Positions 37,572 through 58,078 are shown, counted from the first letter of the stretch. The stretch: DNA of 64,000 nucleotides from an uncultured Acidobacteriota bacterium (GCA_963806495.1 CAWDYA010000008.1:321114-385113), one strand, 5' to 3'. Made by a program: numbers and translations. The notes: generated from the sequence alone by a model not told the origin.

Positions 37572-39110
37572 TCAGCGGGCGATGTGCCCGGGATCGCCGA
37601 GATTCAGGAGACGTTCCGTCCAGAGGTTGGTCAGCCGCTCCTGCGCGTTGTTCTGCCGGAGCCGCTGGTTCAGGAACGACCAGTCCACCCGGTCGGCCGA
37701 CTGGTCCTGGTTGAAGCAGGAGAAGACGATCGTCGCCTCGCCGGTCTCCTGGCAGACATGCCGCTGGAGGCACTGCGCGCAGACCTCCTTCATCATGCAC
37801 TGCATGGGCGAGTTGATGCTGGCGATGGCCGTGTGGCCCGGCTTCAGATAGGGCGCCAGCACGCCGTGACGCGCGCGGGTGACGGCGGCCATCATGACGT
37901 CCGATCCGATCACCACGATCCGGTCGCACTCGGCGAGCGGGATCAACTGCTCGCCCAGATCTCCCGAGGCGTATGCCACCATGGCCTGCACGATGTTGCA
38001 CACGACGGTGCGATCCTGCGGGCGCCTCGCCGGGATCGGCTCCCCCTTGTCCACCGCGTACACCACGACGTCGGTGTTCGCCTCGATCTCCTCACGCTTG
38101 AAGAAGTCGCCCGGCTTCTTGTAGCCGGCGAAGTAGATCACGCGGCAGCCCGCCTCCTTCATCCCCTTGGCGATCGAGAACAGCACCGCGTTGCCGAGCC
38201 CGCCGCCGGCGAGCAGCACCGTCTCTCCCGGCACGATCTCGGTGGGCGCGCCGGTGGGGCCCATCACGATCACCTCTTCGCCGGGCTTCAGCCGGTTGCA
38301 CAGCCGCGAGCTGGAGCCGAGCTCGAGCGCGATGAGCGAGAGCAGGCCCTGGTCGCGGTCGACCCAGGCGCCGGTCAGGGCGAGCGGCTCGATCAGCATC
38401 GGCGTCCCTTCGACCACCTGGGAGGTCGACTCGTAGTTCTGGAGACGATAGAACTGACCCGGATGGAAGTTGCGTGCCGCGCGCGGCGCCCGGACCACCA
38501 CCTCGATGATCGTCGGGGTGAGGCGGTTCACCCGGGTGACGACGCACTTGAGCTCGTCGTCCATGCGGCGCCACAGCCGCGCCAGGCGCTCCTCGCGCTC
38601 GGCCAGCTCACCCTGGCGCGCCGCGGCGATCCGCTCCGTGAACAGCGCGGCGATGTGCGGCGCCCCGTCCTTGGCCGAGGCCATCGCCTTCACCACGTTG
38701 CCCGCATATTTCGGATGGTTGTCGCCGAAGAACGACACGAGTCGGCCTTCGCTGTTGTACGAAGTAAAGAAGCCACCCTGCCCCGGCTCCGACGGCTGCA
38801 GCGCGGGAGCGCCGTCGACGAGCGTGGCGCTGTACGCACGGAAGAACTTGCCGCGATCATCGAGCTCGAAGGTCCCCCGGTGCTCCTTCTCGTAGGTGAC
38901 GTTGGGGCTCGTCCCGGCCGCGACCATGCAGGCTCGAGCCGGCAGGGTCACCGTCCCGCCCCCCTTCTTCTCGAATACCATCGCGCTCAGATGCCCGTGC
39001 TCGTCGGGCACCGCCTCGATCGGCGAAAGACCCTCGGCGAAACCGATCCCCTCCTCGAGGGACTTGATGACCTCCTCGTGGTTGAGCCGGTAGGCGGGCG
39101 AGTCGGCCAT
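37572..39110 (-). CDS. FNR/PyrK-like FAD/NAD(P)-binding electron-transfer domain protein with a C-terminal Cys cluster. It is probably the C-terminal part of a fusion with the upstream GltD-like gene.
   Basis: An oxidoreductase FAD/NAD-binding fold (RVNRLTPTIIEVVV...GQFYRL; VLLAGGGLGNAVLFSIAKGM) is followed by a C-terminal CMMKEVCAQCLQRHVC...FSC cluster. There is no convincing RBS, and the upstream ORF's sense passes into this frame. Confidence 0.7.
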   Translation of the reverse strand: MADSPAYRLNHEEVIKSLEEGIGFAEGLSPIEAVPDEHGHLSAMVFEKKGGGTVTLPARACMVAAGTSPNVTYEKEHRGTFELDDRGKFFRAYSATLVDGAPALQPSEPGQGGFFTSYNSEGRLVSFFGDNHPKYAGNVVKAMASAKDGAPHIAALFTERIAAARQGELAEREERLARLWRRMDDELKCVVTRVNRLTPTIIEVVVRAPRAARNFHPGQFYRLQNYESTSQVVEGTPMLIEPLALTGAWVDRDQGLLSLIALELGSSSRLCNRLKPGEEVIVMGPTGAPTEIVPGETVLLAGGGLGNAVLFSIAKGMKEAGCRVIYFAGYKKPGDFFKREEIEANTDVVVYAVDKGEPIPARRPQDRTVVCNIVQAMVAYASGDLGEQLIPLAECDRIVVIGSDVMMAAVTRARHGVLAPYLKPGHTAIASINSPMQCMMKEVCAQCLQRHVCQETGEATIVFSCFNQDQSADRVDWSFLNQRLRQNNAQERLTNLWTERLLNLGDPGHIAR

Positions 39111-41241
39111 CGTCTTGCGATAGCAGAATCGTCACGCCGCCCCAGCCGGTCACAAGACGCGCGAGTTCGGGCCGCTCGCCCGCGGTGGCGGCACGCTCCC
39201 GCTCGTGGCGCACGGCGCGGCCGTGCTCGAGGAACTCGTCGAGGATCTCCAGCTCCTCGGGGCGGAAGTCGACGCGCACCGCCGCCTCGCCGTGCTTGGC
39301 GGCCAGCGTCTCGTAACGATGCAGGATTTTCTCCACCTGCACCGGGTAGTAGGCCATCAGCTCGGTCGCGGTGTCGATCGCCGTGAGGCCGCCCCCGATA
39401 ACGAGGGCCGGAAGCCGCACCTGGAGATTGGCCAGCGAGTTGCGCTTGAAGGCTCCGGTGAGCTGCAGACCCATGAGGAAGTCGCTGGCCTCGCGGACCC
39501 CCCGCAGCAGGCTGTTCTTCATGTCGATGATGGTGGGCTTGCCCGCCCCCGCGGCGATCGCGACGTGGTCGAAGCCGAGATCCCACGCCTCGTCGACCGT
39601 CAGGGTGCCGCCGAACCGGATGCCGCCGTACAGCCGCACCTTGCGCCTCCGCGCCAGGTTGAGATGCAGCACGGCGAGGAAGTTCTTGTCCCACCGCACC
39701 GTGATGCCGTACTCCGACACCCCGCCGAAGCCGACCAGGGGCCGGCTGTCCAGCCGCCTGTACAGCGACCGGACGTCCTTGACAGGCTTCGGGCACCGCC
39801 CGCCGGCGCCCGTCAGGTCGTCCGGAAGCGGTTCGATCTTGAGTCCGTCGATCCCCACCACGGCGAACCCGTCGTTGGCCAGGTGGTGCGCCAGCGTGTA
39901 GCCGGCCGGGCCGAGCCCCACGACCAGGACGTTGTACCCGTTGTAGGGCAGCGCGTGCGGCCTTCTCACGTTGAGCGGGTTCCAGCGCGTGAGCAGGCTG
40001 TAGATCTCGAAGCCGTACGGCAGGTCGAGGACATCGGTCAGGATCCCGGTCTCGATCTGGGGAATGTTCACCGGGTCCTGTTTCTGGTAGATGCACGCCT
40101 TCATGCAGTCGTTGCAGATCCGGTGGCCGGTGCCCGGCGCCATCGGGTTGTCGATCGCGATCAGCGCGAGCGCGGCCAGCGAGTCGCCGCGGCTCTTCAT
40201 CAGATGGGCCTCGGAGATCTTCTCGTCCAGAGGGCATCCGGTCAGCGGGATCCCGAGCGGATTCGGCTTGTAGCCGCCCTGCGGCAGCGTGAACCCCTTC
40301 GTGCAGGAGTCCTTGTCGCGCTCGTGGCAGAAGATGCAGTAGTGGGCCTCGGCGAGCACCTCGCGAGGCTCCATCCGTGAGTCGGTCAGCGTGAACCCGT
40401 CGCGGCGGCGCCGGTGCTCGACCGGGCCCATCGCCAGACCGGGCAGATCCCGTCGCGGGCGGATCACCTTGACCAGACGCTGGTGATCCACCGGACGCGG
40501 CACACGCAGCGAGGCCCAGCCGTGATACAGCGACGAAGGGCCCCGTTCGGCGTCGCCCAGCAGGGCCGCCGTGTACCGCTCGGCATCGGCGAGCTGCCGC
40601 CTGACGTCCGCGGCCGCCTCCGGATCCGGCGGCACCGCCTTCGCGAGCTCACCCTCGCGATCGAGCAGCGCGCAGACATGCTGCGCGAGAGCCATCTCCG
40701 GATCCATCGCGACCATCAGGCCGGCCAGCTCGCCCGGCCACTCGACCGTGGCGCCGGAGAGCATCGGGTACGGCTCGCGGGCCGTGGGCCCGTAGCGCTT
40801 GGCCACACGGCGCTGAACGAACTCGCGGCGGAACCGCACCACCGGCTCCTCCGCTGCCGCGCGTCCCGCCAGGGCGGTCATCTCGGCCTCGATGCCGAAC
40901 ATCCTGCCCAGGAAACGGCTGAGCCACGGCGCCACCGTTACCAGGGCGTCGGAGCACTCGACGGGGCCCATCGACTCGAATTCCGACCGGTACCGCTTCA
41001 GGGTCTCGAACGCCGCGCGATCGTGGTCCTTCAGGTAGTCGTCGAAGGCCCGTGCCAGATCGGGCAGACGATGAACATCGTGCAGATCGCCGAAACGGAA
41101 ACCCGCGATCCCGAGGTCGAAGTCATGGCCGGCCTCGTCCGGGCCACCGCTTGCGGGCGGTCTTGTGCTGTTGAGCAGAGATTCGGGGTTCAACGGACGT
41201 CTCCAGAAAGAGCCTGAATAATACGATCTCGCGGCCGGCAT
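39110..41241 (-). CDS. glutamate-synthase-small-subunit-like (GltD-like) FAD/NAD(P) 4Fe-4S oxidoreductase with an N-terminal extension of about 300 aa. Its 3' end is frameshifted into the downstream gene.
   Basis: The product carries HYCIFCHERDKDSCTKGF...GCPLDEKI...CNDCMKAC (Fe-S), VLVVGLGPAGYTLAHHLA (FAD) and ALVIGGGLTAIDTATE (NAD). The track ORF (38857..41793) continues as an implausible RG-rich tail beyond about 39110. The ATG sits at 41241. Confidence 0.75.
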
Positions 41242-46119: not shown

Positions 46120-49100
46120 ATGCGGACCCGCAGGATCCCCCCAGCGCTGGCCGTGCTTGCGGCGGTCTCGATCCTCACGGGATCGCTCACCTCCGCGGCT
46201 ATCTTCTGCGTCGACGCGAACAACACGTCGGGAGCCGAGGACGGGTCGCGGGCGCGCCCGTTCAGCGCCATCGCCTCCGCGCTCCTGAGGGCCGCCTCGG
46301 GCGATACCGTCCGGGTCGCCGGGGGGGTCTACGACGAGAACATACTCGTCCCCTCGGGCGTGAAGGTGCTGGGCGGGGGAAACGACGGCCGGCCCGACTG
46401 CGGGGATCCCAACAACCTGCTGGATCCGAACAACCCGTTCGAGCCGGGCGCTCTCCGCACGATCGACGGAGGCAACCGCACCAACGCGGTCACCATCGGC
46501 TCGTCGGATCCGAACACCCGGTTCGAGGGCTTCACCGTCACCCATGGGCTCGGTCTCAGCGGCGGCGGCATCTTTGTTTCGGGCCCCGCAACCGTCATCA
46601 ACAACGTCGTGATGGGGAACACCAGCCGGGGAGGCACCCCCTTCGGCAACTCGATCGGCGCCGGTATCGCCGTCGGCGGCAACGCGCGGATCGAGCACAA
46701 CATGATCCTGTCGAACACGGCGCTCGGCGGCACGGGCGGCGGTATCGCGGTGTTCGCTGGCTCGCCCGTCATCACCCGCAACACGATCGTCGGCAACAAC
46801 GCGCTCTCGACCCCGGACGGCTTCTACGGATACGGCGGCGGCATCTCGGTGATCTACCCCTCGGCGCAGCCCGCCATCACCTCCAACGTCATCCAGGGCA
46901 ACCGCTCGGATCAGGGAGGCGGCGGAATCGACGTGTACCGGTCTCCCGCCATCGTCGCGGGCAACACCATCGACGGGAACACCACCGGCGTGCCGGGGGG
47001 CAAGCTGGGCTACGGCGGCGGCATCGGGATCGTCGGGACGTCGCCTCTTACGACCTCCCGCCCGGCCATCATCAACAACCTGGTTCTGGGCAATCACGCG
47101 GTGTCCGGCGGCGGTGGCGTGGACGTCCTGCAGGCCAATCCGCTGTTCAGCGACAACAACATTTACGGGAACACCCGCGGCAACTTCAACGGCAAGCCGA
47201 ATCCGATCGGCACGGATGGAAACGTCTCGATCGATCCGATGGTCGACCCGAACATGCCAACCATTCCGCCCATGGCGCCGCCGCCGGCCGGATTCGCGCA
47301 CATCGACGCGGGCCATCCCGGGATCTTCTGCATCGACACGAACCCGTCCGACCCGAACTGCCCGGACGCCGCCGGCGACCGCCTCGTCACCTCCCTGCTG
47401 CTCGGCGAGAGCGACATGATGGGATTTCCACGCACCCTCGACGGCAACGGCGACGGTCTGCAAAGACCCGACTTCGGAGCGTACGAGTACACGCCCGGCG
47501 GCACCGGCGATCTCGATGACGACGGGGTGACCGATTCCGTGCCGGACAACTGTCCGGCGGCGTGGAACCCCTCGCAGGCGGACGTCGACGGAGATGGCAT
47601 CGGCGATGTCTGCGACAACTGCCCGTCGATGTACAACCCCGCCAAGGACTGCGATCAGGACTCGACCACGCCGGACGCGCAGTGCGACGCCGACCTGGAT
47701 GCGGTGGGCGACGAGTGCGACGTGGACCTCGACAACGACACGATCCGTGAGGACTACGACGGCGACCCGAACACCGTCAGCCTCTGTGTCGGCGGCGCGA
47801 CTTCATCCTGCGACGACAACTGTGCCGGCACCAGCAACGTGTCCCAGTCCGACGGCGACAAGGACGGCGTGGGCGACGCCTGCGACAACTGCACCACCGT
47901 TCGCAACGGCGACTGCAGCATCGCGGGCCAGCTCTTCTGCGACGCCAACCGCGACGGCAGCCAGGATCCGAACGAGATAGCCGAGGGCAACCAGACGGAT
48001 ACCGACGGCGACCAGTTCGGTGACGCCTGCGACAACTGCCCCGGCATTCCGAACGGCGACTGCACGGCCAGCATCGACTACTGCGACATCAACGGGGACG
48101 GCGTGCTCAGCTCTCAGGAGCAGAGTCTCGGATTCCTGACCGACCGCGACAAGGACGGGATCGGTGACGCCTGCGACCCGGATCTGGATCAGGACGGCAT
48201 CCCGTGCGGGCTCGTTCTGATGGATCCGAACAACCCGGCGAGCCTGGTCGTGGCCGTGGATTGCACCTCCAACCCGTGCACCGGCGGCGACACCATGGGG
48301 TGCTACGACAACTGCCCCATCCTCGCGAACCCGCTGCAGATCGACGCCGATGCCGACGGCGTGGGCGACGCCTGCGACAACTGTCCGCCCCCCACGGCCA
48401 ACCCCCTGTCCGACTGCGACGGCGACCCCAATACTCCGATGGTGCAGTGCGACTTCGACCTCGACGGCAAGGGCGACGAGTGCGACCCGGATGACGACAA
48501 CGACACGATCCCCGACGACTTCGACATGGACCCCAACACCGTCAACCCCTGCACCGGCGGCAACACGATGAACTGCGACGACAACTGTCCCTTCCGGTTC
48601 AACGACACGCAGTCGGACCTCAACGGGAACGGCATCGGTGACGTGTGCGATCCGGATCCCGACGGCGACGACATCTACAACGACTTCGATGCGGACCCGA
48701 ACACCCGGAACATCTGCACTGGGGGTCTGGCCATGGGTTGTGACGACAACTGCCCGCTCGTCTACAACCCGTCGCAGGCGGACACGGACGGCGATCTCGT
48801 GGGCGACCTGTGCGACAACTGCGACGCCATCGGCAACACGTTCCAGACCGACGCCGACGGCGACGGGATCGGCGACCCGTGCGACCCGGATGCGGACAAT
48901 GACGGCATCCTCGAGGACTTCGACGGAGATCCGAACACCCCCACCCCCTGCTCGGGCGGCAACACGATGAACTGCGATGACAACAGCCCGGACATCTACA
49001 ATCCCATGCAGGAGGACGACGACGGCGACGGGATCGGCAACCTCTCCGACAACTGCGTCACCGTCCCCAACCCGACGCAGGCCGACACCGATGGCGACAG

Positions 49101-49803
49101 GATCGGTGACGCCTGCGACGACGACCTTGACGGCGACGGGATCTCAAACACCAAAGACAACTGCCAGGATATCGCCAACGCGCTGCAGGGCGATCTGGAT
49201 CGGGACGGGACAGGCGATCTGTGCGACCCGGACGCCGATGGGGACACCGTCGCCGACTCCGGGGACAACTGCCTCGGCCTGTACAACCCGACGCAGACGG
49301 ACGACGACGGGGACGGCCTCGGTGACGCCTGCGATCTCTGCCTTGGCACGCCGTCCACAGTGAACTCCGACTCCGACGCCGACGGGCTCGGGGACGTGTG
49401 CGACAACTGCCCCCAGGAGCCCAACCCCGGCCAGTCCGACGCCGACGGGGACGGTATAGGCAACGCCTGCGACAGGCCCGAGGTGGCCGTGGCGCCGATC
49501 CGCGGCCCGGCCCAGGCCCGTCTCGGCGGCGCCGCGACGGCCTACCGCATCACGATCCGGAACAAGGGCACCGCCGACGCTCTGGTGAACTGGTCGGTCG
49601 AGCTGCTCGATCCGGCCGGCACGCCGACCCCGGTCCAGTCCATGACGGACGTGCCGATCCCGGCCGGCACCGGAACCTCCTTCCAGGTGACCGTCAGCCT
49701 GCCCGGCGGCGGGTCGAGAGGGATCTGGTCGATCGTGGCCGACGTGTTCGCCACGGGATCGAAGAATCACGACCTGGCGGTGCTGCCCGTCAAGGCGCGC
49801 TAG
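46120..49803 (+). CDS. giant secreted protein: N-terminal right-handed parallel beta-helix (pectate-lyase/NosD-like repeats) followed by about 17 thrombospondin type-3 (TSP3) Ca-binding repeats and a C-terminal Ig-like domain
   Basis: A signal peptide ([27 protein letters not shown]) leads into beta-helix repeats (GGGIFVSG...NNVVMGN...[18 protein letters not shown]). Reiterated D-x-D-x-DG-x-GD-x-CDNCP units follow ([42 protein letters not shown], and so on). An alternative ATG lies at 46102. Confidence 0.8.
47500..49470 (+). repeat. in-frame coding tandem-repeat array (TSP3 units) with recurring GACGCCTGCGACAACTGCCC-type cores
   Basis: Units encoding gaCggCgaCggnatcggNgaCgNctgcgacaactgccc recur at irregular spacing of about 90-130 nt. 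They are coding repeats, not a CRISPR array. Confidence 0.75.
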
Positions 49804-49805
49804 CG

Positions 49806-51185
49806 GTGAGACGGGTCTGGCTTCTCGCCGGCGTGGTGAGCGCGCTCGCGCTGCTCGTCGTCGCCTTCTTCTGGCTGCGCCCCGCCCGGATCAAGCAGGA
49901 CACCAGCTTCCTCGTGATCGTCGTCGATTCGATGCGCGCCGACCATCTCGCTCCCTACGGATACACGCGCGCGACCTCGCCGGTCATCGACGGGCTCGCG
50001 CGCGACGGCATCGTCTTCGAGAATGCGTGGTCCCAGGCGCCCTGGACCCGGCCTTCGGTGGCCTCGATCTTCACCTCCACCTTCATCGCCGTGCATCGCG
50101 TCCTGTACAGCGGCCGCGTGGTGGACGGCGAGAAGCGTACCGACGTGCTGAGCGACAAGTTCGTGACGATTGCCGAAGCGCTCCATGCCGGCGGTTACGC
50201 CACCGGCGGATTCGGCAAGAAGATCCACCTGCGCCCCGGGTTCGGCTTCGGACAGGGGTTCGACGGCTACGACATGAATGCCGGAAACGCCGCGCGGATC
50301 AACAAGGTCACCCTGCGCTGGCTGCGCCACAACGACCCCGATCGTTTCTTCATCTACCTTCACTACAACGACCCGCATTACCCGTACAAGCCCGCGGCCC
50401 GGTGGGCGAAGTTCGGCGCCACCAAGGCACGCGTGCAAATCAACGGCCGCACGAAGAAGGCGTTCCACGACGGCGCCCTGCAGCTCTCGCCCGCCGACAT
50501 CCAGCAGCTCATCGACCTGTACGACGGGGAGATCGCCTACACCGACGATGCGATCGGCGCGCTTCTCCACGCGATAGGGCGGCTCGGGTATCGCAGGCTC
50601 CTCGTGCTGGTGACGGCCGATCACGGCGAGGAGTTTCTCGACCACGGTGACATCACGCACGGTCAGTCTCTCTACAACGAGCTGATTCACGTGCCGTTCA
50701 TCATCGGAGGCACGGGCCTCGAGTCCGGCTCCCGGCATCTCAGGGTGAAGACACCGGTGAGGCTGATCGACATCATGCCGACCTTCCTGCAGATGGCCGG
50801 GCTCCCGGAACCTCCCGGGATCCAGGGAACGAGCCTCGTGCCGCTCATGAGCGGCGAAGCTGCGCCGCCGGGGACACCCCTCGCCTTCAGCCAGCGGCGC
50901 GACGAGGAGGATCCCGGCTTCTCCGACGCGATCACGGACGGACGGTGGAAGCTGATCCGTGACCGGGCGCTGGGCCGGACCATGCTGTTCGACCTGGCGG
51001 CCGACCCCGGGGAGAACCTCCCGGTCGGCGGCGTCAACCAGGATGTCGTGGCGCGTCTGACCGGCGAGATGGATCGCTGGTCGGAGGCCAACACGGCGCT
51101 GTACGATCGCATCCGGCCCGAGGAGACGACTCCCCTCGACCCCGAGACCGAGGAGCGCCTCCGCTCGCTCGGATACATCAACTGA
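49806..51185 (+). CDS. sulfatase (alkaline-phosphatase superfamily, arylsulfatase-like) with an N-terminal transmembrane anchor
   Basis: The GTG start sits 2 nt after the TSP3 gene's stop. A transmembrane helix (VWLLAGVVSALALLVVAFFWL) precedes the catalytic core (VIVVDSMRADHL...PWTRPS; VTADHGEEF). Confidence 0.8.
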   Translation: MRRVWLLAGVVSALALLVVAFFWLRPARIKQDTSFLVIVVDSMRADHLAPYGYTRATSPVIDGLARDGIVFENAWSQAPWTRPSVASIFTSTFIAVHRVLYSGRVVDGEKRTDVLSDKFVTIAEALHAGGYATGGFGKKIHLRPGFGFGQGFDGYDMNAGNAARINKVTLRWLRHNDPDRFFIYLHYNDPHYPYKPAARWAKFGATKARVQINGRTKKAFHDGALQLSPADIQQLIDLYDGEIAYTDDAIGALLHAIGRLGYRRLLVLVTADHGEEFLDHGDITHGQSLYNELIHVPFIIGGTGLESGSRHLRVKTPVRLIDIMPTFLQMAGLPEPPGIQGTSLVPLMSGEAAPPGTPLAFSQRRDEEDPGFSDAITDGRWKLIRDRALGRTMLFDLAADPGENLPVGGVNQDVVARLTGEMDRWSEANTALYDRIRPEETTPLDPETEERLRSLGYIN

Positions 51186-51187
51186 CC

Positions 51188-52310
51188 ATGCGCGTGGTCC
51201 ACGTCAACACGGAAAGAACCTGGCGCGGCGGCGAGAGCCAGGTCTTCAATCTGATGCGCGGGCTGCGCGCGCGCGGCCACGATGTCGAGGCCGTGACGCT
51301 GCCGGGCGGGGTTCTCGGACGGCGCTGTCTCGATGAGGGGTTCGACGTTCTCCCGCTTGCCATGCGCAGCGACGCGGATCTGCTCGCGGCGATGCGGCTC
51401 GCCCGTCATGCCCGCCGGCGTCGGGCGGACATCCTCCACGCGCAGACCGCGCGGGCACACTCCATCGCCCTGCTGGCGCGTCTGCTCGGCGCCCCTGCCA
51501 GACTGATCGTGAGCCGGCGGCTCGACTTCCCGATCCGCCGCAACCCGCCCAACCTGTGGAAGTACCGGAGCCGCGCCGTGGACGGCTACATCGCCGTGGC
51601 CGGCGTGATCCGTGACATCCTCGTGGACGCTGGCGTCGACCCGGCGCGCGTCACGGTGATCAACAGCAGCATCGAGCTCGAGCGGTTCACCGGCGCCGGG
51701 GACCACCGCCTCGAGGTGAGACGGGAGCTCGGTATACCCGACGACGCCCCCCTCGTGGGCAACGTGGCGGCGCTGGCCTGGCACAAGGGTCAGAAGGATC
51801 TGATCGCCGCCATGCGGCCGGTGCTCGACGCGATCCCGGGGGCGTGGCTGGTGATCGTCGGCGGCGGCGAGGAGCGCGAGCCCCTGGAGCGGCTCATCGG
51901 GCAGCTCTCGCTCGGGCAACGTGTCGTGCTCACGGGGACCCGGACCGACGTGCCGCGGCTGCTGACCGCGTTCGACCTGTTCTGCATGCCCTCCTATCTC
52001 GAGGGACTCTGCAATTCGGTGCTCGAGGCGTTCGCCGTGGGTATCCCGGTCGTGGCCACCCGGGCCGGCGGGCTGCCCGAGAATCGTGGAGCACGAAATC
52101 ACGGGGCTGCTCGCGCCCCCGCGCGACCCGGCGGCGCTCGCCGCCGCGATCGTCCGGCTCCTGTCCGATACCGATCTCGCGCGCCGCGTGAGCCAAGCCG
52201 GTGGCCGTCTCGTCCGCGAGCGGTTCGGGGTCGACCGGATGGTCGAATCGACCGAGGCCTGCTACCGGTCGGTGCTGGCGGGCAGCGGGCCGAGCCGTAC
52301 CACCACGTAG
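51188..52310 (+). CDS. GT4-family glycosyltransferase, with a frameshift near 52080-52090
   Basis: MRVVHVNTERTWRGGESQV...ILHAQTARAH gives the N-terminal domain. The C-terminal region (TGTRTDVPRLLTAFDLFCMPSYLEGLCNSVLEAFAVGIPVVATRAGGLPE) continues in the other frame as IVEHEITGLLAPP... (ORF 52086..52310). An extra A in gagaatcgtgg would account for the frame break. Confidence 0.8.
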
Positions 52311-53923
52311 TCGCCGGCCGAGAACAGCACCCGGTCGCGTGGCGGGTCCAGCAACACGAACCCCGCCTCCCGTCCCTTCGCGAACCGGGCCCTGTTCTCC
52401 TCCTCGAACGGTGCGAAGTAATGCCACCCGCCGTCTTCGTATCTGCGGCGATTGACAAGAAAGACGTCCGCTCCGTAGCGGTCGTGCAACCGCTCGACGT
52501 CCTCCCATCGCGTCGCAAAGCAGGCGGCCAGTTCCGCCTCGATCCGCTCGGAGACACGGCGGTAGTACTCGCGATAGTAAGGCAGCGACGTCTCCATCGA
52601 TGCCAGGAAGCTGCGCCTCGCCCGCAGACCGACCCCGTCGGCGTCGAGCGGATGCGCGGCGACGAGCGTGTCCTTCGGCATCGACCGGAGAAACCGGTAC
52701 GCCTCCTCCAGTCCGGCGGGCTCCGGCCGGGACAGATCCGAGGCGATCGACCGGCCGGCCGTCAGGGCGCTTCCCGCCACCACCGCCAGCGCCGCGACCC
52801 CGACGAGGAGCGGCCGGCGCGCCGGCCGCAGCACCACGCTTCGCCCCCATCGTGCCATGATCGCGTCGAGAAGGCGCGGCACGATCGCCGAGAGCCACAT
52901 GAGAAAGAAGACCGGCAGGGCGTACTTCGCGTAACGGTTGGGGTAGTGCAGCGCGAAAAGCGTCAGATGCGCGGTCACGAAGCATCCCAGCGAGGTCAGC
53001 AGCAGGACCCACGCCTCCATCGGCACGGCCTGGCGCCACAGCCATCCCGCGACGAGGATCGCCGCGACCCAGAGGGCGGCCTGCAGGGGTCGGATCTCCA
53101 GCCCCGTGCGGGTGCTCTTGAAGTAGTACCGGATCGGATCCGGCTCGAAGAACCGTGCCCGTCCGCCAGGCCAGTACTGAGGCATCGCCCGGGCCTCGGC
53201 CGCCGTGACGCGCGGGCCGATCTCGGGCGGCGGCGCGGGGGCGTAGGCGTAAAGGAGAACCCCGACGGCCGCCAGACCCAGCAGCCCCATGACCGCCCAG
53301 TGCCGCGGCAGGGCGCGCTCCCGCGCGACCCGCGTGATCAGGACGACAGCGCCGAACACCCCGAGGTTCGCCGCGCAGGGGGGATAGAAGAGTGCGGCCA
53401 CCAGCGACGACAGGCCGAACAGCAGATGCCGCCGCTCCATGAGCGCCCACACGCCGAGCATCAGGATCGGCAGAGCGAACGATCGCGGCAGCCCCCCTTC
53501 CAGGTCGCCCAGCCGTCCCGACAGGATGATGTACGCCGCGCCCACGACGCCGCCGAGCGTCCGGCCCGCGCACCGCACGCCCAGGATCCAGGCGAGGGCG
53601 ACAACGGCGACGGCGAGCAGGAACGGGATCGTCTCGGCCAGGCGCTGCGCATCCACGTACGGCACCAGCAGCCGGTACAGCTCCTGCCAGCCGTACAGCG
53701 CGAACAGAGGCCGGGACATGAAAGCGGCGATCGGGTCGTGCGGGAAGAGCTCGGGATCGGCGAACCGGTAGGTCCACCACACATGCTGGCACAGATCGCC
53801 CTGGTAGAGGTCGGGGCGCAGCAACTGGGGAAGAAACGCGCGTGCCGCCGCTATCGCCCCCAGCGTGCCGATCCACAGCCCCGCCAGCAGGGTCGTCTTC
53901 GTGCTCATCTCGCGCCTGCTCAT
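52262..53923 (-). CDS. polytopic integral membrane protein (about 12 transmembrane helices) with a C-terminal soluble domain, of unknown function in the glycan locus
   Basis: The protein is hydrophobic throughout (LLAVAVVALAWILGV, LPILMLGVWALM, ...) with an acidic soluble C-terminal tail. Its 3' end overlaps the convergent GT4 gene by about 49 bp. Confidence 0.55.
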   Translation of the reverse strand: MSRREMSTKTTLLAGLWIGTLGAIAAARAFLPQLLRPDLYQGDLCQHVWWTYRFADPELFPHDPIAAFMSRPLFALYGWQELYRLLVPYVDAQRLAETIPFLLAVAVVALAWILGVRCAGRTLGGVVGAAYIILSGRLGDLEGGLPRSFALPILMLGVWALMERRHLLFGLSSLVAALFYPPCAANLGVFGAVVLITRVARERALPRHWAVMGLLGLAAVGVLLYAYAPAPPPEIGPRVTAAEARAMPQYWPGGRARFFEPDPIRYYFKSTRTGLEIRPLQAALWVAAILVAGWLWRQAVPMEAWVLLLTSLGCFVTAHLTLFALHYPNRYAKYALPVFFLMWLSAIVPRLLDAIMARWGRSVVLRPARRPLLVGVAALAVVAGSALTAGRSIASDLSRPEPAGLEEAYRFLRSMPKDTLVAAHPLDADGVGLRARRSFLASMETSLPYYREYYRRVSERIEAELAACFATRWEDVERLHDRYGADVFLVNRRRYEDGGWHYFAPFEEENRARFAKGREAGFVLLDPPRDRVLFSAGDYVVVRLGPLPASTDR

Positions 53924-55626
53924 CCCCTGCCGGCTCCGGCCGCCGCCGCACAGATCCGCTGCTCTCCAACCCGCCGGCAGTCGATCGTGCGCAGCGCCGG
54001 GATCGCCTGCTCCAGCCGGTCGAGATCCTCCGGCGTCGCCAGCACGACGGCCTGCGGGCTCTCGCGCAGCAGATCGGCGATCCGGTCCAGCCCGCTGATC
54101 TCCGGTATCGTCTCACGCTGCAGGAACAGGTTGAAGATGCCCGCCCAGTTCTCACGATACATCACGATCGTCCCACCGGGCCCGGCGGCGCGGCGCACCG
54201 TCTCGGCCAGGGGTCCTGCCGACTTGATCGCATCGAACGACGGCGTGGCCACCCACTGCGCCCACCCCAGGACGATCAGTGCCACGGCGGCGCTGCAGGC
54301 GAACGATCGCGCCGGGCGCGCGAGAGCCGCCGCCATCCCCGCGATCCCCAGCACGGCCGCCGCCAGTCCCGGCACCAGGAGCAGGAGAGCCCCCGGCATG
54401 TGGAGGAGCCACGCGAGCGATTCGTGCTGGTCGGGCGCCAGGCCGGAGTACCGCGCGAGCAGCGACGGCCCGTAGGTGAACGGCAGAGCGGCGATCCCCA
54501 CCCCGATCACCGCGAGCAGCAGCGACGCCGCCCCGAGGGGCAGAACCGAACGGAGACGCCCGGCCCCGGCGCGGGTCTCATCGAACAGACGCCTCAGCTC
54601 GAGTGCCACCAGCATCCCGGCCGCCGGGAAGAGCGGCAGTAGATACCGGGTCTTCTTCCCCGACATGAGGCTGAAGAAGACAAACGTGAAAACGAACCAG
54701 ACGAGCGCCAGACGGGAGAGCCGGTTTCGTTTCGCCTCCCGGGCCGCGCCGTACAACGCCGTCGGCAGCAGGACGATCCATGGAAGGAACGACGCGGGGA
54801 AAACGCTGAGGAAGTAGTAGACCGGTTCCCTATGGTGCCACGACTCGTACGCCCTGCCGAGGTTCTGCTTGAACAGGATCACACCGGCGTAGTCGGTCCC
54901 ACCCCGTGCGATCGCCGGCACCAGCCACAACGAGACCACGCCGGCCGCCACGAGGCTGCCCCACGCCGCGTGCCATCCCACCGAGCGTCGCGGCCCATCC
55001 TCGAGAAGGCCGTTCAGGAACAGCACGCCGGCGGGGATCAGCAGACCGATGGGGCCCTTGGTGAGGATTGCCAGCCCCGCGATGACATAGAAGAAGCACC
55101 ACATCACGGGCGAGCCGCTCTCGCGCGCCTTCAGACCGGCGCTGATGCAGGCCACGACAAGGAAGGCCAGGGTCCCATCGATCACGCCCGAGGTCGCGTG
55201 CGCCGCGAACATGGCGGAGGTGGCCAGCACGAGCGCCGCGAGCCAGCCGGTGCGCGCGTCGTCGAGATGCCTGCCCAGGCGGAAGGTGAGGATCAGGGTG
55301 CCGAGCGCGGCCAGCGCCGACACGACTCGAGTGCCCGCGTCGGGAGGAACCCCGGGCAGCTCGCCCGCCAGGATCCCGAGCCAGAAGAACAGGGGCGGCT
55401 TCTCGCCGTACACCTCGCCGTTGAGATGAGGGAGGATGTAATCCCCCCGCGCGACCATCTCGCGCGCCACCTCGGCGTAGCGCGGCTCGTCCGGGCTCCA
55501 GACATCGCGGTTCCAGACCGAGGGGAGATAGAGGCAGACCGCGAGCAGCGCCAGCGCGAGAAAGGGGCGATGAGGCGCGATCAGACGCGTCAGCCCGTAC
55601 CGGCCGCCGCGAGCCGCCTCACTCAT
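53920..55626 (-). CDS. ArnT/PMT-family GT-C glycosyltransferase (GT83/GT39-like, uses a polyprenyl-phosphate-sugar donor)
   Basis: The N-terminal signature WSPDEPRYAEVAREMVARGDYILPHLNGEVYGEKPPLFFW is followed by about 12 transmembrane helices. Confidence 0.85.
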   Translation of the reverse strand: MSEAARGGRYGLTRLIAPHRPFLALALLAVCLYLPSVWNRDVWSPDEPRYAEVAREMVARGDYILPHLNGEVYGEKPPLFFWLGILAGELPGVPPDAGTRVVSALAALGTLILTFRLGRHLDDARTGWLAALVLATSAMFAAHATSGVIDGTLAFLVVACISAGLKARESGSPVMWCFFYVIAGLAILTKGPIGLLIPAGVLFLNGLLEDGPRRSVGWHAAWGSLVAAGVVSLWLVPAIARGGTDYAGVILFKQNLGRAYESWHHREPVYYFLSVFPASFLPWIVLLPTALYGAAREAKRNRLSRLALVWFVFTFVFFSLMSGKKTRYLLPLFPAAGMLVALELRRLFDETRAGAGRLRSVLPLGAASLLLAVIGVGIAALPFTYGPSLLARYSGLAPDQHESLAWLLHMPGALLLLVPGLAAAVLGIAGMAAALARPARSFACSAAVALIVLGWAQWVATPSFDAIKSAGPLAETVRRAAGPGGTIVMYRENWAGIFNLFLQRETIPEISGLDRIADLLRESPQAVVLATPEDLDRLEQAIPALRTIDCRRVGEQRICAAAAGAGRG

Positions 55627-56395
55627 CCCGGCGGGCCCGCGGACGGTGGGTACGCTCCCACAGCCTCGCGTACTTGACGAACACGACCCATGTGTCGATG
55701 CCCGTGATCATCAGCCCCGCCACGCCGTCGAGGAAACCCATCTGCAGGACGTACCGCTTGAGGAAACGGGCCAGCGGACGAAACGCCAGATCCAGCACCG
55801 TGGCGCGGCGCCCCTTCCTGACCAGGTCCTCGGCCCCCCATGCGGTGTAGCGATCGATCTTGCGAAGATAGCTGTCCCACGATCTGAAGGTGATGTGCAG
55901 CAGCGGATGGCGCAGCTCCGATACCGGGCCCGACACCTCGACGTCGGCGTGGACTTCCTTCTCCTGGTAGCGCCCCTTCGTCTTGTCCCAGAGGCGCAGC
56001 ACCCTGTCGCGCGCCCAGCCTCCGTGGTTGATCCGCTGTCCGAGGAAATGGTTGACCCGCCGGATGACGTAGCCGCTCCAATCGGGTCCCCGGGCCAGAA
56101 GATCCCGTATCTCGTCACGCAGCCCGGGCGTCACCCGCTCGTCGGCGTCCACCACCATCACCCAGCGATGGGCCGTCTGCGGAATGGCCCAGTTCTTCTG
56201 CGAGGCCGAGTTGCCGTACTCGCGCTGGATGATCCGGTCGGTATAACGGCGCGCGATCTCGAGAGTGCGGTCGGTCGAGAAGGAGTCGACCACCAGCACC
56301 TCGTCGGCCCACCGGACCGATTCGAGGCACTCCTCGATGTTCACCTCCTCGTTGAAGGTGGGAACGATCACGCTCAGCGGTTCCGGCGATGCCAT
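55619..56395 (-). CDS. GT2-family polyprenyl-phosphate sugar synthase-like glycosyltransferase (ArnC/DPM1-like)
   Basis: The N-terminus LSVIVPTFNEEVNIEECLESV is followed by a DxD region (VMVVDADERV). The gene overlaps the ArnT-like start by 8 bp. Confidence 0.85.
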   Translation of the reverse strand: MASPEPLSVIVPTFNEEVNIEECLESVRWADEVLVVDSFSTDRTLEIARRYTDRIIQREYGNSASQKNWAIPQTAHRWVMVVDADERVTPGLRDEIRDLLARGPDWSGYVIRRVNHFLGQRINHGGWARDRVLRLWDKTKGRYQEKEVHADVEVSGPVSELRHPLLHITFRSWDSYLRKIDRYTAWGAEDLVRKGRRATVLDLAFRPLARFLKRYVLQMGFLDGVAGLMITGIDTWVVFVKYARLWERTHRPRARRDE

Positions 56396-56414: not shown

Positions 56415-57110
56415 CTAGAGCAGCGGGTTGCGTCCCTTGGTGCGCGGCAGGTCCTTCTTGCGGTTGAAGGGCCAGAGCCGGCGGACTCTCTTGAATCGCC
56501 TGTGCATCGCCAGCTCCTCCGGCGACAGCTCGTCGGGAACCAGCAGCACCTTCCATTTCAGCAGGGCGCGCCGCTCGGCGCGTCTCAGACGGGGAAACAC
56601 GACCCGTCTCGCCCAGCTCCCCTCCTCGAACACCTCGGCGGAGGAGAAGTCGATCGGCCAGATCTCCCCGTCATCGGTCACCAGAAAGTTGTCCCGGCTC
56701 CTGAGATCCCCGTGGATGACGCCCCGTTCGTGCACCTGATCGAGCAGCGCCGAGAGCCGCTCGGCGACACGCGGCACCCCTCCCCGGCGATGATGATACT
56801 TCGGCAGCCGCGTCCCGCCAACGTACTGCATGATGATCGCGTTGCGATCCAGGCGGCGGTAGAAGCGCGGGATCCCGGAGACGCCCCCGAGCCGCCGATA
56901 GGCTCTCTCCTCGCGCGACAGCTGCATGGCCCCGATCCACCGGATCGGCGGAATCTTGGACGCGTAGTCCTTGACCGCCACCTCCCCCTCGGCGGCGGAC
57001 ACGAGGAGGATATCGGCCTTGTTCCAGGCTCCCCTCTTGACGAATCCCGTCACGAGAGAGGGAAGACCGGCTCGCGTCAAGTCATGGACGGAAGGGGCGG
57101 CGCCCGGCAT
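56415..57110 (-). CDS. lipopolysaccharide kinase (Kdo/WaaP) family protein (KdkA/InaA-like)
   Basis: The product has the motifs VIHGDLRSRDNFLVTDDGEIWPIDF and a kinase-like fold. Its ATG overlaps the radical SAM gene's stop in an ATGA arrangement. The upstream part of the 561-aa track ORF is antisense read-through. Confidence 0.7.
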   Translation of the reverse strand: MPGAAPSVHDLTRAGLPSLVTGFVKRGAWNKADILLVSAAEGEVAVKDYASKIPPIRWIGAMQLSREERAYRRLGGVSGIPRFYRRLDRNAIIMQYVGGTRLPKYHHRRGGVPRVAERLSALLDQVHERGVIHGDLRSRDNFLVTDDGEIWPIDFSSAEVFEEGSWARRVVFPRLRRAERRALLKWKVLLVPDELSPEELAMHRRFKRVRRLWPFNRKKDLPRTKGRNPLL

Positions 57111-58078
57111 CACGCCTCGATCTCGACCTCCTGATCCACTTTGCAGTCCCGGCACAGGTCGATGGTGTGTATCTGCCCGCCGAGGAAACGGCGGCGGATA
57201 TCGGACGCCCGCTCGCCGTTCCAGACTTCGTGGATGGAGGAGTTGGTGATGTTGCCGAGCACCTGCTTGCGGGAGTAGTCGGTGCAGCACAGCACCATGT
57301 CGCCGTTGAAGTTGATGTATCCCTGCTTGAAGAGCCTCGTGCAGGTCGAGAAGTAGTCCATGTGGCCCGACCAGGAGAACGATTCGGCGTCGGCGATGTT
57401 TCCGCCCCGGTTCTCCAGCGCGGTGTACTTCGATCGGACGCCCCGCTTCTTCCAGTACGCCACCGCCTTCTTCGCGTCGATGACGTCGGTGGAGACCATG
57501 GTGATCCAGACCCGCGGCCACTCGGACCCGCGCCGGCGCTGCTGCTCGAGCAGGTAGTTGATGTTCTCCATCGTGTGCTCGAAGTGCATCGCGCCCCGCA
57601 TCGTCTTCTCGTACGCGTCCTTCTCGATCCCCTGGAAGGAAACATACAGGGCGTGCAGTGCGTCGCCCACGTCGAGCATCTCGTCGACACGCTGTCGGGT
57701 CAGCAGCCCGCCGTTCGTGGTCACCACGACCTTGCTGTCGGGTATCTGCTCGTGGATATAGACGATCTTGCGGAACAGATCCTTGTCGATGAACGGCTCG
57801 TTCATCAGGTAGGGGCTGATCCGGCGCACCCCGTGCTGCTTCGCCTCGGCGATGATCCTCTCGAACAGCTCCGGGGCCATCCGACCCTTGGGCTGGAAGT
57901 CGAATGTCTCCCCGAACGGGCAGAAGATGCAGTCGGCCTGGCATCCGGTGACGGTCTGGATCTGCAGCGTGCGGGGAAAGCGGGGGATCGGCCGGCGGGT
58001 GACACGCTTCCGCATGATGGTGAGCAGGCCGTCGCCCGGCTCGTCGACATAGTATTTGTTGACCTTGACGGATTTCAT
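57110..58078 (-). CDS. radical SAM enzyme with a SPASM-like C-terminal Cys-rich domain
   Basis: The motif CQADCIFC is the CxxxCxxC cluster. A GGE-like region and the C-terminal LCCTDY...CRDCK are present. The product is 322 aa. Confidence 0.85.
   Translation of the reverse strand: MKSVKVNKYYVDEPGDGLLTIMRKRVTRRPIPRFPRTLQIQTVTGCQADCIFCPFGETFDFQPKGRMAPELFERIIAEAKQHGVRRISPYLMNEPFIDKDLFRKIVYIHEQIPDSKVVVTTNGGLLTRQRVDEMLDVGDALHALYVSFQGIEKDAYEKTMRGAMHFEHTMENINYLLEQQRRRGSEWPRVWITMVSTDVIDAKKAVAYWKKRGVRSKYTALENRGGNIADAESFSWSGHMDYFSTCTRLFKQGYINFNGDMVLCCTDYSRKQVLGNITNSSIHEVWNGERASDIRRRFLGGQIHTIDLCRDCKVDQEVEIEA

Follow-up and report, generated by a model that had tools for sequence, protein, structure and literature searches.

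Gene A, the first of two co-directional genes that ORF analysis places at positions 46120-51185 of the window (the whole 64,000-nt stretch of DNA that was analyzed), encodes a secreted protein in which a signal peptide, a right-handed parallel beta-helix, a long array of thrombospondin type-3 (TSP3) calcium-binding repeats, and an Ig-like C-terminal domain follow one another, the order given in an earlier note on this DNA (Table 1). Since gene A heads a cell-envelope/exopolysaccharide glycosylation locus, we take its product for a matrix or surface protein that depends on calcium and acts on, or together with, the glycan made by this locus, with gene B as an optional Thr-type envelope enzyme; we would put the chances of this combined reading at about even. 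For gene A by itself, we infer that a calcium-dependent surface or matrix role is the most plausible function. Both genes belong to known kinds of protein and do not constitute a new kind of system. Most of the earlier note's description stands; what does not are its span, its sulfatase, its concern about assembly, and its claim of rarity.

Table 1 Features of genes A and B and of the adjoining locus, in window positions
Feature	Position	Strand	Basis or remarks
Gene A: secreted beta-helix/TSP3-repeat/Ig-like protein	46120..49803	+	ORF; identical protein P0001 in NCBI/ENA
Sec-type signal peptide, gene A	46120..46200	+	Basic N-terminus, small residues before predicted cut
Right-handed parallel beta-helix domain, gene A	46201..47496	+	~aa 34-465 in 1,233-aa numbering; AlphaFold2, Foldseek
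TSP type-3 calcium-binding repeat array, gene A	47509..49476	+	aa 470-1125; Pfam, motif counts, COMP/TSP matches
Ig/FnIII-like beta-sandwich, gene A C-terminus	49477..49800	+	~108 aa; AlphaFold2, Foldseek
Gene B: alkaline-phosphatase-superfamily enzyme, 459 aa	49806..51185	+	Pfam PF00884 Sulfatase 6.6e-38
N-terminal transmembrane/signal-anchor segment, gene B	49815..49877	+	aa 4-24; hydropathy
Active-site motif W-T81-R-P-S-V85, gene B	50043..50060	+	Position of sulfatase C/S-x-P/A-x-R signature
Gene C: GT4 glycosyltransferase, conserved downstream partner of gene A	51188..52310	+	Pfam Glycos_transf_1, Glyco_transf_4
Polytopic membrane protein, family not recognized	52262..53923	-	At least 7 hydrophobic segments; Pfam, NCBIfam
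ArnT/PMT_2-type GT-C	53920..55626	-	Pfam, NCBIfam
Small GT2	55619..56395	-	Pfam, NCBIfam

The earlier note had assigned the whole span to a giant beta-helix protein, but two genes share it, and the repeat protein is large rather than giant, with 1,227 aa if counted from the ATG at 46120 or 1,233 aa if counted from the database gene call start at 46102. We favor the ATG at 46120 because aligned gene A orthologues begin MRxRR.... The stop codon (TAG, 49801-49803) is followed 2 nt downstream by the GTG start of gene B at 49806, a spacing already noted, and no terminator-like site was found between the two genes. The signal peptide, for which we predict a cut after 27 residues, before IF, is the sole hydrophobic segment in a hydropathy scan of the protein and lacks a lipobox. 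The mature product (~123 kDa, computed pI 4.05) would be a very acidic, modular protein that a Candidatus Polarisedimenticolia bacterium exports by Sec to the cell exterior. Since neither a cell-surface anchor nor a recognizable sorting signal was found in it, this protein could either be held at the surface or be released.

Calcium binding is predicted from the TSP3 array. Over ~650 aa, motif counting gave 16 C-type cores (DxDxDGxGDxCD-type) and 8 N-type motifs, along with two EF-hand-like DxNxDGxxxxxE loops at aa 614 and 662 and four DPNT..C.GG....CDDNC disulfide inserts; the region contains 50 Cys residues and is 23.6% Asp. Against Pfam PF02412 (cut-off 25 bits), the array scored 173.8 bits (E=4.6e-52), and when it was scanned in thirds, 6, 5, and 5 HMM stretches were found, 16 in total as compared with the "about 17" repeats counted earlier. 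The repeats are therefore real, far beyond chance. The solved, calcium-loaded type-3 repeats of COMP and TSP-2 match the array at E=2e-46 and 4e-40, respectively. RTX and Calx-beta had been named in the earlier note as families that might fit better; neither these nor other calcium-repeat HMMs matched gene A, and TSP_3 alone did. In an alignment of 16 orthologues, the Asp, Cys, Gly, and Gln positions of the array are invariant. In the part modeled with AlphaFold2 (aa 960-1125), regular secondary structure is absent at a pLDDT >90, and Foldseek matched this part to the COMP/TSP wire at E=7e-13. By analogy with the solved thrombospondin/COMP repeats, the array is probably a disulfide-stapled calcium "wire" that folds only around bound Ca2+. 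C-type motifs bind two calcium ions and N-type motifs bind one, a rule that predicts ~40 ions for the array. Such a wire may serve as a rigid calcium-dependent spacer or as an interaction surface.

With the type-3 repeats of thrombospondins and COMP (PDB 3FBY, 1YO8, and 1UX6), gene A shares PF02412, the alternation of C-type (…NxxQxDxDxDGxGDxCD) and N-type (CDxDxDxDxI/V) loops, and the conserved Cys pairs. Human thrombospondins reportedly carry 13 type-3 motifs, about half as many as the C-type and N-type motifs of gene A together. The gene A array also has the extra EF-hand-like loops and "DPNT…CDDNC" inserts, and it is flanked by the beta-helix and a small Ig-like domain, whereas HMM searches detected no EGF domains, coiled coil, or C-terminal L-lectin-like TSP_C. 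On account of these absences and the different flanks, we rejected gene A as a thrombospondin. Bacterial TSP3 proteins, including Myxococcus MtsC, OmpA-family proteins with TSP3, Saccharophagus degradans glucanases, and the Omnitrophota dockerin/TSP3 giants, resemble gene A in being secreted and in carrying TSP3 arrays as calcium modules beside adhesive or carbohydrate-active domains. Gene A differs from them in that it is without a MYXO-CTERM tail, OmpA domain, dockerin, or identifiable CAZy catalytic module; the MtsC model NF047638 (NCBIfam) scored 309.7 bits on the gene A repeats only, below its cut-off of 350. Bacterial arrays of this length had been described as uncommon, which is overstated, as at least five unrelated bacterial proteins with 17-24 cores appeared among the 120 matches listed. 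Gene A orthologues are already auto-annotated as "thrombospondin type 3 repeat-containing protein." The repeat DNA had also been called assembly-prone, which we dispute because its copies are 60-80% identical and exact repeats reach 29 nt at most. Tandem Repeats Finder found no array in this DNA, and the gene A protein can be aligned over its full length with orthologues from independent assemblies.

The pectate-lyase-like beta-helix proposed for the N-terminus was borne out by structure prediction. The AlphaFold2 model has three short strands per coil (pLDDT 82.9, pTM 0.86), and all 50 of the 50 Foldseek PDB matches listed are right-handed beta-helix proteins, with pectate lyase Pel9A first and RbmB lyase, PL6 lyases, and tailspikes also among the top matches; the matches are weak, at E about 1e-3, TM 0.3-0.4, and 11-15% sequence identity. 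HMM searches gave a mixed answer: Pfam found nothing above threshold in the window's own gene A beta-helix, whereas its orthologues match PF13229 Beta_helix. NCBIfam returned LIC10774 and NosD only, both weak. The domain ends in a conserved PRxLDG...DxGAxE cap. In its predicted fold, coil geometry, N-terminal cap (G…PF.TI..A…A..GD.V.V..G.Y), and Asn/Gly ladder, it is like pectate-lyase-fold proteins such as PL9 Pel9A (1RU4), RbmB of Vibrio cholerae, PL6 chondroitinase B, and phage tailspike depolymerases. In contrast to these, no lyase or hydrolase HMM matched the domain, and catalytic residues could not be mapped. The resemblance to polysaccharide lyases, hydrolases, and phage depolymerase tailspikes supports a glycan role, in which the beta-helix would be the working head of the protein, most likely binding a polysaccharide and possibly cleaving it.

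If cleavage were its main task, gene A would be a secreted polysaccharide lyase or hydrolase with a catalytic beta-helix, and the TSP3 and Ig-like regions would be a mere calcium-stabilized linker or carrier, as in modular marine glycanases. We regard this as rather unlikely, albeit the strongest of the alternatives. The top structures do include PL9, PL6, and RbmB lyases, a rhamnogalacturonan lyase, the GH136 lacto-N-biosidase LnbX, other glycoside hydrolases, and tailspike depolymerases, and the TRNxIxGNxAL...DGFYGYGGG stretch that is strongly conserved among orthologues could be a functional site. TSP3 modules are found on S. degradans glucanases (PMC2386152), and more generally in giant surface proteins and in secreted enzymes with which bacteria act on polysaccharides (PMC2386152; bioRxiv 10.1101/2023.11.21.568195). 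However, neither a CAZy-type lyase/hydrolase family in Pfam or NCBIfam nor the sequence of a solved structure was matched, the TM-scores are low, and the invariant helix residues in the orthologue alignment are mostly Gly and Asn, at positions of the structural ladder, and charged residues are seldom conserved. Given the missed Pfam thresholds and the Foldseek scores above, binding and catalysis by the beta-helix are not told apart.

The C-terminal domain, which had been called Ig-like, is modeled as a seven-stranded sandwich with a pLDDT of 93.9 to about 95. Its best Foldseek match is the FnIII-like RbmA (rmsd 2.2 Å over 111 columns), followed by MG domains of complement C3, FnIII-like domains of GH3 enzymes, and NPC2; in Pfam, FixG_C, MG2, and NPCBM_assoc were all sub-threshold. 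As RbmA is a biofilm scaffold protein of V. cholerae, this closest match supports a matrix role, and the sandwich may act as a second binding or attachment module.

Glycosyltransferases follow gene B, as had been noted. In Pfam searches these are gene C at 51188, then the PMT_2-type GT-C and the GT2, both encoded on the other strand, and at 58252 a second GT4. Gene C is 85% identical to its orthologue in locus L004, and this alignment shows a frame switch at 52081; an extra A at about this position causes a +1 frameshift that interrupts the gene in the window and leads to a shifted-frame stop at 52308-52310. Its best NCBIfam match, below the cut-off, is a PEP-CTERM/exopolysaccharide glycosyltransferase. 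The envelope-glycan genes at 52262..56395 are convergent with genes A-C. Our searches found ~15 full-length gene A orthologues, those with a source name all from Candidatus Polarisedimenticolia (Acidobacteriota), and these searches turned up the beta-helix/TSP3/Ig-like group only in MAGs and metagenomes of the Polarisedimenticolia type. In 9 of 10 loci, the gene A orthologue has a GT4 downstream of it; between the two are sulfatase-like genes in four, a methyltransferase in four, and nothing in one. PMT_2 and GT2 genes recur beside the GT4 in L004, L005, L001, L006, and L009. Against our reading, synteny inherited within one class, rather than a functional link, could also explain this gene order, the GT4 adjoining gene B is frameshifted in the window, and in the distant orthologue locus L007 the glycan context is absent altogether.

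The same neighborhood could instead mean that gene A is an abundant surface glycoprotein and itself the substrate: the PMT_2-type GT-C would attach O-glycans to it in the periplasm with polyprenyl-phosphate sugar from the small GT2, and the Thr-type enzyme or the methyltransferase would add lineage-specific decoration. A PMT/PMT_2 GT-C with a Dpm1-like GT2 is the classic pairing for glycosylation in the periplasm or a lumen, several loci have this pair together with the repeat gene and GT4, and the variable slot would suit decorating enzymes. On the other hand, the best NCBIfam match of the GT-C is ArnT, the lipid A aminoarabinose transferase (172.9 bits against a cut-off of 567), so that a lipid acceptor is equally indicated, and neither GT-C nor GT2 shares the strand of gene A. 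We hold this explanation to be improbable.

The earlier note had taken gene B for a transmembrane-anchored sulfatase. The anchor stands, as aa 4-24 (Kyte-Doolittle 19-residue mean up to 2.67) form the sole such segment in the protein, and so does the Pfam Sulfatase match (131 bits), to which SGSH_C can be added; NCBIfam matches were all far below cut-offs. In the PDB, gene B is most closely related to formylglycine sulfatases and phosphonate monoester hydrolases (E about 1e-22). However, the C/S-x-P/A-x-R pattern, defined as essential for sulfatases (PMC5066984, PMC12421950), is absent anywhere in gene B. Alignments to 4UPI, 7OZ8, and 4UPL place Thr81 at the formylglycine position and Val85 at that of the Arg. 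The T-R-P-S-V motif is kept in the L005 orthologue and in a paralogue, Thr occupies the formylglycine position in 148 of the 150 closest representatives, Arg at +4 occurs in none of them, and 0 of 261 homologues matched the SulfAtlas catalytic pattern. With both essential residues replaced in gene B and Thr in nearly all close relatives, we rejected it as a formylglycine sulfatase. According to the SulfAtlas authors, Thr variants captured by PF00884 are not to be considered sulfatases (PMC5066984), and judged by its sequence gene B is not to be called one. As a Thr-type alkaline-phosphatase-superfamily enzyme, it may have low-level sulfatase activity. Its retained metal-ligand positions (D41, D272, and H273) are consistent with an active metalloenzyme; K138/H140 and H191 are also kept, Ser42 takes the place of the second Asp/Gln, and Gln aligns with the sulfate-binding Lys of 4UPI.

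These substitutions bear on the earlier proposal of a sulfated-glycan-processing module, in which the membrane-anchored sulfatase would process sulfated glycans bound by a calcium-dependent adhesin. The 2-nt gap without a terminator-like site, the Pfam Sulfatase and SGSH_C matches, and the recurrence of sulfatase-like genes close to the repeat gene at 4 of the 10 loci would fit such a pair. Against it, both essential residues are missing in gene B and effectively all close homologues, the Lys of 4UPI is replaced, and no formylglycine-generating enzyme was identified nearby, the neighboring radical-SAM/SPASM protein not being an anaerobic sulfatase maturase by NCBIfam. Nor is the pairing conserved: direct abutment on the repeat gene was seen in this window only of the 10 loci, the locus of the closest gene A orthologue (59% identity) has no sulfatase-like gene, and four others have the methyltransferase in that slot. 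We consider this pairing highly improbable and, by the motif test, largely refuted.

In the reading we prefer, gene B would be a membrane-tethered metalloenzyme whose catalytic domain faces outward and has Thr as its nucleophile. It would be an optional glycan or envelope decorator, probably a phosphoester hydrolase or transferase, whose slot in other lineages holds a methyltransferase or nothing. By sequence, it shares the alkaline-phosphatase-superfamily fold with type I sulfatases, which depend on formylglycine, and with phosphonate monoester hydrolases (SulfAtlas S1; 4UPI, 3ED4, human ARSA), differing in the substitutions and missing signature described above. With EptA/MCR-1, LtaS, and NPP, it has in common a Thr nucleophile in a T-x-P-S/N context, a membrane-tethered outward-facing catalytic domain, and a location among envelope-glycan genes, with weak HMM matches to EptA (E=2e-11, aa 31-93) and Pfam Phosphodiest (E=4e-5). 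In contrast to EptA and LtaS, it has one transmembrane segment rather than roughly five and scores 42.9 against a cut-off of 561, and over its whole sequence it resembles arylsulfatases and phosphonate monoester hydrolases more than these families. Its Thr clade is very large and uncharacterized (22,669 representatives at E<1e-30), and many members are fused to TPR repeats.

Lastly, the high Asp content of the array, the pI of 4.05, and the ~40 predicted calcium sites would also suit a high-capacity calcium buffer or mineral-nucleating protein that is neither adhesin nor glycan binder, to which we give very little credence, as nothing nearby points to mineralization and the array is flanked in every orthologue by a conserved, confidently folded beta-helix and Ig-like domain, which argue for a binding or enzymatic role.

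The interval 46120-51185, which the earlier note had listed as a giant protein coupled to a sulfatase, comprises two genes. Gene A, which encodes a secreted beta-helix/TSP3/Ig-like protein, opens at 46102 or 46120 and closes with a TAG stop at 49801-49803, and gene B occupies 49806-51185 in a different reading frame, opening with a GTG of its own; the stop and the separate downstream ORF rule out a single giant gene, and the label 'giant' does not hold. A third ORF (gene C, a GT4 glycosyltransferase) starts at 51188. All three lie on the + strand with 2-nt gaps, the first of which had been read correctly, and a terminator scan found no terminator-like site between them. Given these spacings, the shared strand and the scan, the three genes are likely co-transcribed. 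Scans for Rfam families, tRNAs, promoters and terminators, run on the window or the locus, gave nothing relevant. Gene A encodes 1,227 aa from the ATG at 46120 and 1,233 aa in the database gene call (start 46102); since orthologues begin MRxRR..., we consider 46120 the better start. On the + strand, a further ORF of 1,095 codons (51188-54475) begins where GT4 does and continues antisense to the minus-strand genes. Only its first ~298 codons are real, and spurious long ORFs are typical of high-GC DNA (the G+C of the window is ~69%).

Features of the TSP3 locus and of the ten loci compared (L numbers denote other contigs carrying a gene A orthologue; coordinates without an L number are those of the window)
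Feature	Location	Strand	Remarks
TSP3 array of gene A	residues 470-1125	+	Pfam TSP_3, motif counts, COMP/TSP matches
GT4 gene 0.1-3.5 kb after gene A	9 of 10 loci		exception L007, the most distant
Gene B orthologue in slot between gene A and GT4	window, L005, L008, L009
Methyltransf_23-like gene in slot	L001, L003, L006, L010
Empty slot	L004		closest orthologue, 59% identity
Extra sulfatase-like paralogue, 665-682 aa	L005:11488-13491, L008:12968-14965, L009:11857-13905	-	opposite strand; 33-37% identity
Secreted glucose/sorbosone-dehydrogenase-like (GSDH) beta-propeller + PKD protein, 797 aa	41273-43666	-
Polytopic protein, 553 aa	52262-53923	-	no Pfam/NCBIfam match; at least 7 hydrophobic segments
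RIO1/Bud32-like small kinase and radical-SAM/SPASM protein (57110-58078)	56415-58078	-	after GT2 and GT-C
Frameshift (+1) in GT4	~52081 within 51188-52310	+	relative to 85%-identical L004 orthologue
Frameshift in large RP005_N/Pyr_redox_2 gene	~39127 within 37581-41193	-	frame -2 to -3

The N-terminus of gene A is a typical Sec signal peptide, and the protein has no other hydrophobic segment. The following region (aa 1-470 were searched) matched no Beta_helix, NosD, Pectate_lyase or other Pfam family even at E<=10, and NCBIfam gave weak matches only (LIC10774 surface protein, 1.5e-5; NosD, 9e-5). An AlphaFold2 model of residues ~28-465, built with 24 homologues (pLDDT 82.9, pTM 0.86), shows three short strands per turn, the pattern of a parallel beta-helix. 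In a Foldseek search of the PDB, all 50 of the matches listed were right-handed beta-helix proteins, including Pel9A pectate lyase, the Vibrio lyase RbmB, PL6 lyases, rhamnogalacturonan lyase, glycoside hydrolases and phage tailspikes, and these matches were weak (E about 1e-3, TM 0.3-0.4). Three orthologues (P0008, P0015 and P0016) match PF13229 Beta_helix. Taken together, the coil pattern, the weak structural matches and the orthologue hits bear out a pectate-lyase-like assignment at the level of the fold and nothing more specific. At the other end, a model of aa 960-1233 (pLDDT 93.9) folds the last ~108 residues into a seven-stranded, Ig/FnIII-like sandwich, in keeping with the Ig-like domain first proposed. 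In structure it comes closest to FnIII-like domains of RbmA, a biofilm scaffold of V. cholerae (rmsd 2.2 A), and it also matches complement MG domains, GH3 FnIII-like domains and NPC2. Neither the beta-helix nor the C-terminal domain significantly matched any PDB sequence. The protein ends ...LPVKAR with neither a Cys-containing tag nor a hydrophobic helix, and sequence inspection together with Pfam at E<=10 revealed no lipobox, MYXO-CTERM, PEP-CTERM-like helix or T9SS C-terminal domain.

Between these domains lies an array of thrombospondin type-3 repeats, to which Pfam assigns PF02412 far above threshold (173.8 bits against a cut-off of 25, E=4.6e-52). When the array was scanned in thirds, we obtained 6, 5 and 5 TSP_3 stretches, i.e. 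16, and counted as many C-type cores, at aa 492, 527, 582, 631, 679, 746, 782, 837, 892, 915, 970, 993, 1029, 1065, 1088 and 1111, close to the 17 or so first estimated. Over aa 476-1125 the 16 cores are joined by 8 N-type motifs and 50 cysteines, and the array further has two EF-hand-like loops (DxNxDGxxxxxE) and four inserts of the pattern 'DPNT..C.GG....CDDNC'; the calcium-loop positions of DxDxDGxxDxCD and the Cys residues are invariant across 16 orthologues. Repeats of solved structure match it strongly (COMP, E=2e-46; thrombospondin-2, E=4e-40), and the repeat part of the aa 960-1233 model lacks regular secondary structure, a trait of thrombospondin 'wires'; its structural match to COMP/TSP has E=7e-13. 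A better fit to RTX or Calx-beta had been named as grounds for rejecting the assignment. Neither these nor other calcium-repeat families matched array segments even at E<=10, so the TSP_3 reading stands; the sole match to another family was EF-hand_1 (E=2.7). By homology to the calcium-loaded structures 3FBY, 1YO8 and 1UX6, the array would bind Ca2+ and fold in a calcium-dependent manner. In crystals of thrombospondin and COMP, Kvansakul in 2004 and Carlson in 2005 reportedly saw two ions per C-type and one per N-type motif, by which the array may hold ~40 ions.

The repeat DNA had been suspected of being assembly-prone. Its copies are 60-80% identical, Tandem Repeats Finder reported no array in the region, no exact repeat within 47501-49480 exceeds 29 nt, and the alignment with 15 orthologues from independent assemblies (1,104-1,369 aa, 11-18 cores each) spans the whole protein. 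We therefore rejected tandem-repeat or assembly collapse, and at the sequence level the repeat count is not in doubt.

Eukaryotic thrombospondin and COMP combine EGF-like domains, type-3 repeats and a C-terminal L-lectin-like TSP_C domain. Gene A lacks this set: Pfam finds TSP_3 alone, and the C-terminus is the 108-aa sandwich. The best NCBIfam match of the array is the Myxococcus TSP3 and cell-cell cohesion protein MtsC (NF047638), spread over 9 repeat stretches. At 309.7 bits gene A is, however, below the equivalog cut-off of 350, and it lacks the MYXO-CTERM sorting tail. An identical protein is present in NCBI/ENA on a 705-kb contig, and orthologues, annotated 'thrombospondin type 3 repeat-containing protein', are 39-59% identical over their full length. 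All those with a named source are from MAGs of Candidatus Polarisedimenticolia, which is a class of Acidobacteriota; in species-representative genomes we found only one such locus, 47% identical. Long bacterial arrays are unusual, as the earlier note held, but already known, since unrelated bacterial proteins among the matches carry arrays of comparable length or longer (17-24 cores). Published examples of TSP3 modules include Saccharophagus glucanases (PMC2386152) and giant surface proteins of Omnitrophota (bioRxiv 10.1101/2023.11.21.568195); the latter text also cites a crystal structure of TSP3 repeats from a bacterial OmpA.

Gene B (459 aa) has a single hydrophobic segment (aa 4-24), consistent with the N-terminal transmembrane anchor already proposed, and matches Pfam Sulfatase (PF00884) at 131.2 bits against a cut-off of 25 (6.6e-38). 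This profile also picks up non-sulfatases, and the SulfAtlas authors do not accept Thr variants caught by it as sulfatases (PMC5066984); every NCBIfam model scored gene B far below its own cut-off. Among PDB entries, formylglycine sulfatases and phosphonate monoester hydrolases are most closely related to it (about 1e-22). In these alignments Thr81 occupies the formylglycine position and Val85 that of the essential Arg (W-T-R-P-S-V), Gln aligns with an active-site Lys, and Ser replaces the second metal-site Asp/Gln. The C/S-x-P/A-x-R motif occurs nowhere in the protein, updated PS00523, PS00149 and Ca-binding-1 patterns do not match it, and the updated SulfAtlas catalytic pattern is absent from all 261 homologues. 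The gene B motif is retained in both L005 proteins, the orthologue and the paralogue, and among the 150 best of 1.84 billion representatives Thr stands at the nucleophile position in 148 and Arg at +4 in none. In a sulfatase from this clade, loss of Cys or Arg abolishes or cripples activity (PMC12421950). Our literature search found no characterized Thr-type enzyme of the arylsulfatase clade; EfAS, a candidate manganese arylsulfatase, uses Cys61/formylglycine. Judged by its sequence, gene B is not a sulfatase, contrary to the first reading. Within the window, where we searched for a formylglycine maturase, the radical-SAM/SPASM gene is not supported as a sulfatase maturase, its best NCBIfam match being a tungsten-cofactor maturase (72 bits, far below cut-off) and not anSME.

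Gene B keeps D41, D272/H273, K138/H140 and H191, which suggests a working metalloenzyme. NPP, EptA and LtaS are Thr-nucleophile enzymes, and by analogy the most reasonable inference is that gene B would carry out phosphoester chemistry. It shares the Thr nucleophile with phosphoethanolamine transferases and LtaS, whereas their N-terminus is multi-spanning, and it scores 42.9 bits against a cut-off of 561 with the EptA model. The Thr clade inside Pfam Sulfatase numbers 22,669 representatives (50% identity) with E<1e-30, many fused to long TPR arrays; all are automatically annotated as arylsulfatase or sulfatase and none has been characterized. The main value of the locus is corrective: it illustrates plainly how a gene annotated 'sulfatase' can fail a test for the catalytic motif. 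Sulfated-glycan metabolism inferred from such genes in little-known sediment Acidobacteriota is unsafe, and the caveat extends to this clade of >20,000 representatives.

We compared ten distinct loci, each with a gene A orthologue. The proposed coupling to a sulfatase does not hold, since the slot after gene A is variable, with a gene B orthologue in 4 of the 10, and a sulfatase-like gene abuts gene A in the window alone. Glycosyltransferases do follow, as had been noted: an ArnT/PMT_2-type GT-C and a small Dpm1-like GT2 usually go with GT4, and the window has in addition genes for a polytopic membrane protein, a RIO-type kinase, a radical-SAM/SPASM protein, an asparagine synthase and a second GT4. 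The GSDH-PKD and RP005_N/Pyr_redox_2 neighbors upstream are also conserved. The comparison implies that the stable association is between the repeat protein and GT4/envelope-glycan genes, and the slot looks like a site of lineage-specific swapping of glycan-decorating enzymes.

With the beta-helix, TSP3 and Ig-like domain reading thus upheld, the reading we favor for gene A is that of a secreted extracellular protein, rich in disulfides and stiffened by calcium. Extracellularly, its beta-helix would bind, or possibly cut, a polysaccharide, presumably one made by the neighboring glycan locus, and the Ig-like tail may provide a second contact. That gene A is a true lyase or hydrolase, like several of its weak Foldseek matches, is possible though unlikely. 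We consider it rather improbable that it is instead a glycoprotein substrate of the neighboring GT-C. A calcium buffer or mineral nucleator, which the 23.6% Asp of the array region and the pI of 4.05 of the mature protein might bring to mind, is highly improbable, and there is equally slight reason to retain the sulfated-glycan-processing module of the earlier note, given the motif of gene B and the variable slot. As a doubtful extension of the preferred reading, the unit of repeat protein, variable decorating-enzyme slot and GT4 (with GT-C/GT2) might underlie a thrombospondin-like, calcium-wired surface glycoprotein or matrix component of Polarisedimenticolia, whose own or bound glycan would be diversified between lineages through exchange of a Thr-type 'pseudo-sulfatase' phosphoester enzyme for a methyltransferase; if true, this would be a first biological role for the very large Thr clade. 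The locus joins an uncharacterized bacterial TSP3-repeat beta-helix surface protein to a Thr-type 'pseudo-sulfatase', both of known kinds, and is no new kind of system. Gene A adds a well-defined, conserved beta-helix/TSP3/Ig-like architecture to the bacterial calcium-dependent surface proteins, and offers a compact, confidently modeled type-3 'wire' that could be expressed for studies of calcium-dependent folding outside animals.

Two neighboring genes are frameshifted relative to intact orthologues. In GT4 the window reads GAGAATCGT against GAGATCGTC in L004, and the C-terminal 73 residues are read in the next frame, which closes with a TAG at 52308-52310; the shift may be an assembly indel or a real pseudogene. 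The RP005_N/Pyr_redox_2 gene is intact at 1,185-1,213 aa in orthologous loci. Such differences could reflect single-base errors or real pseudogenes, and two within 15 kb hint at indel errors in the 705-kb contig. Neither touches gene A.

The polytopic protein gene lies directly upstream of the PMT_2-type GT-C with a 4-nt overlap, and a 27%-identical relative follows GT4 in L008; the protein probably serves the glycan pathway as a membrane component. The GT2-RIO-radical-SAM order recurs in L005. The beta-propeller/PKD gene is also the upstream neighbor of the TSP3 gene in L001, L004 and L010, and in the window and L004 a photolyase and YbgA-like pair is inserted between the two. The 665-682-aa paralogue, absent from the window, has the motif W-T-T-P-S-H and a long N-terminal extension and is convergent to the TSP3 gene. 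Lastly, in L003 (15838-19801) GT4 is followed by a lanthipeptide cluster instead of GT-C/GT2, with a C39-peptidase ABC exporter, two Lant_leader_dom precursor genes and a LanC-like gene.
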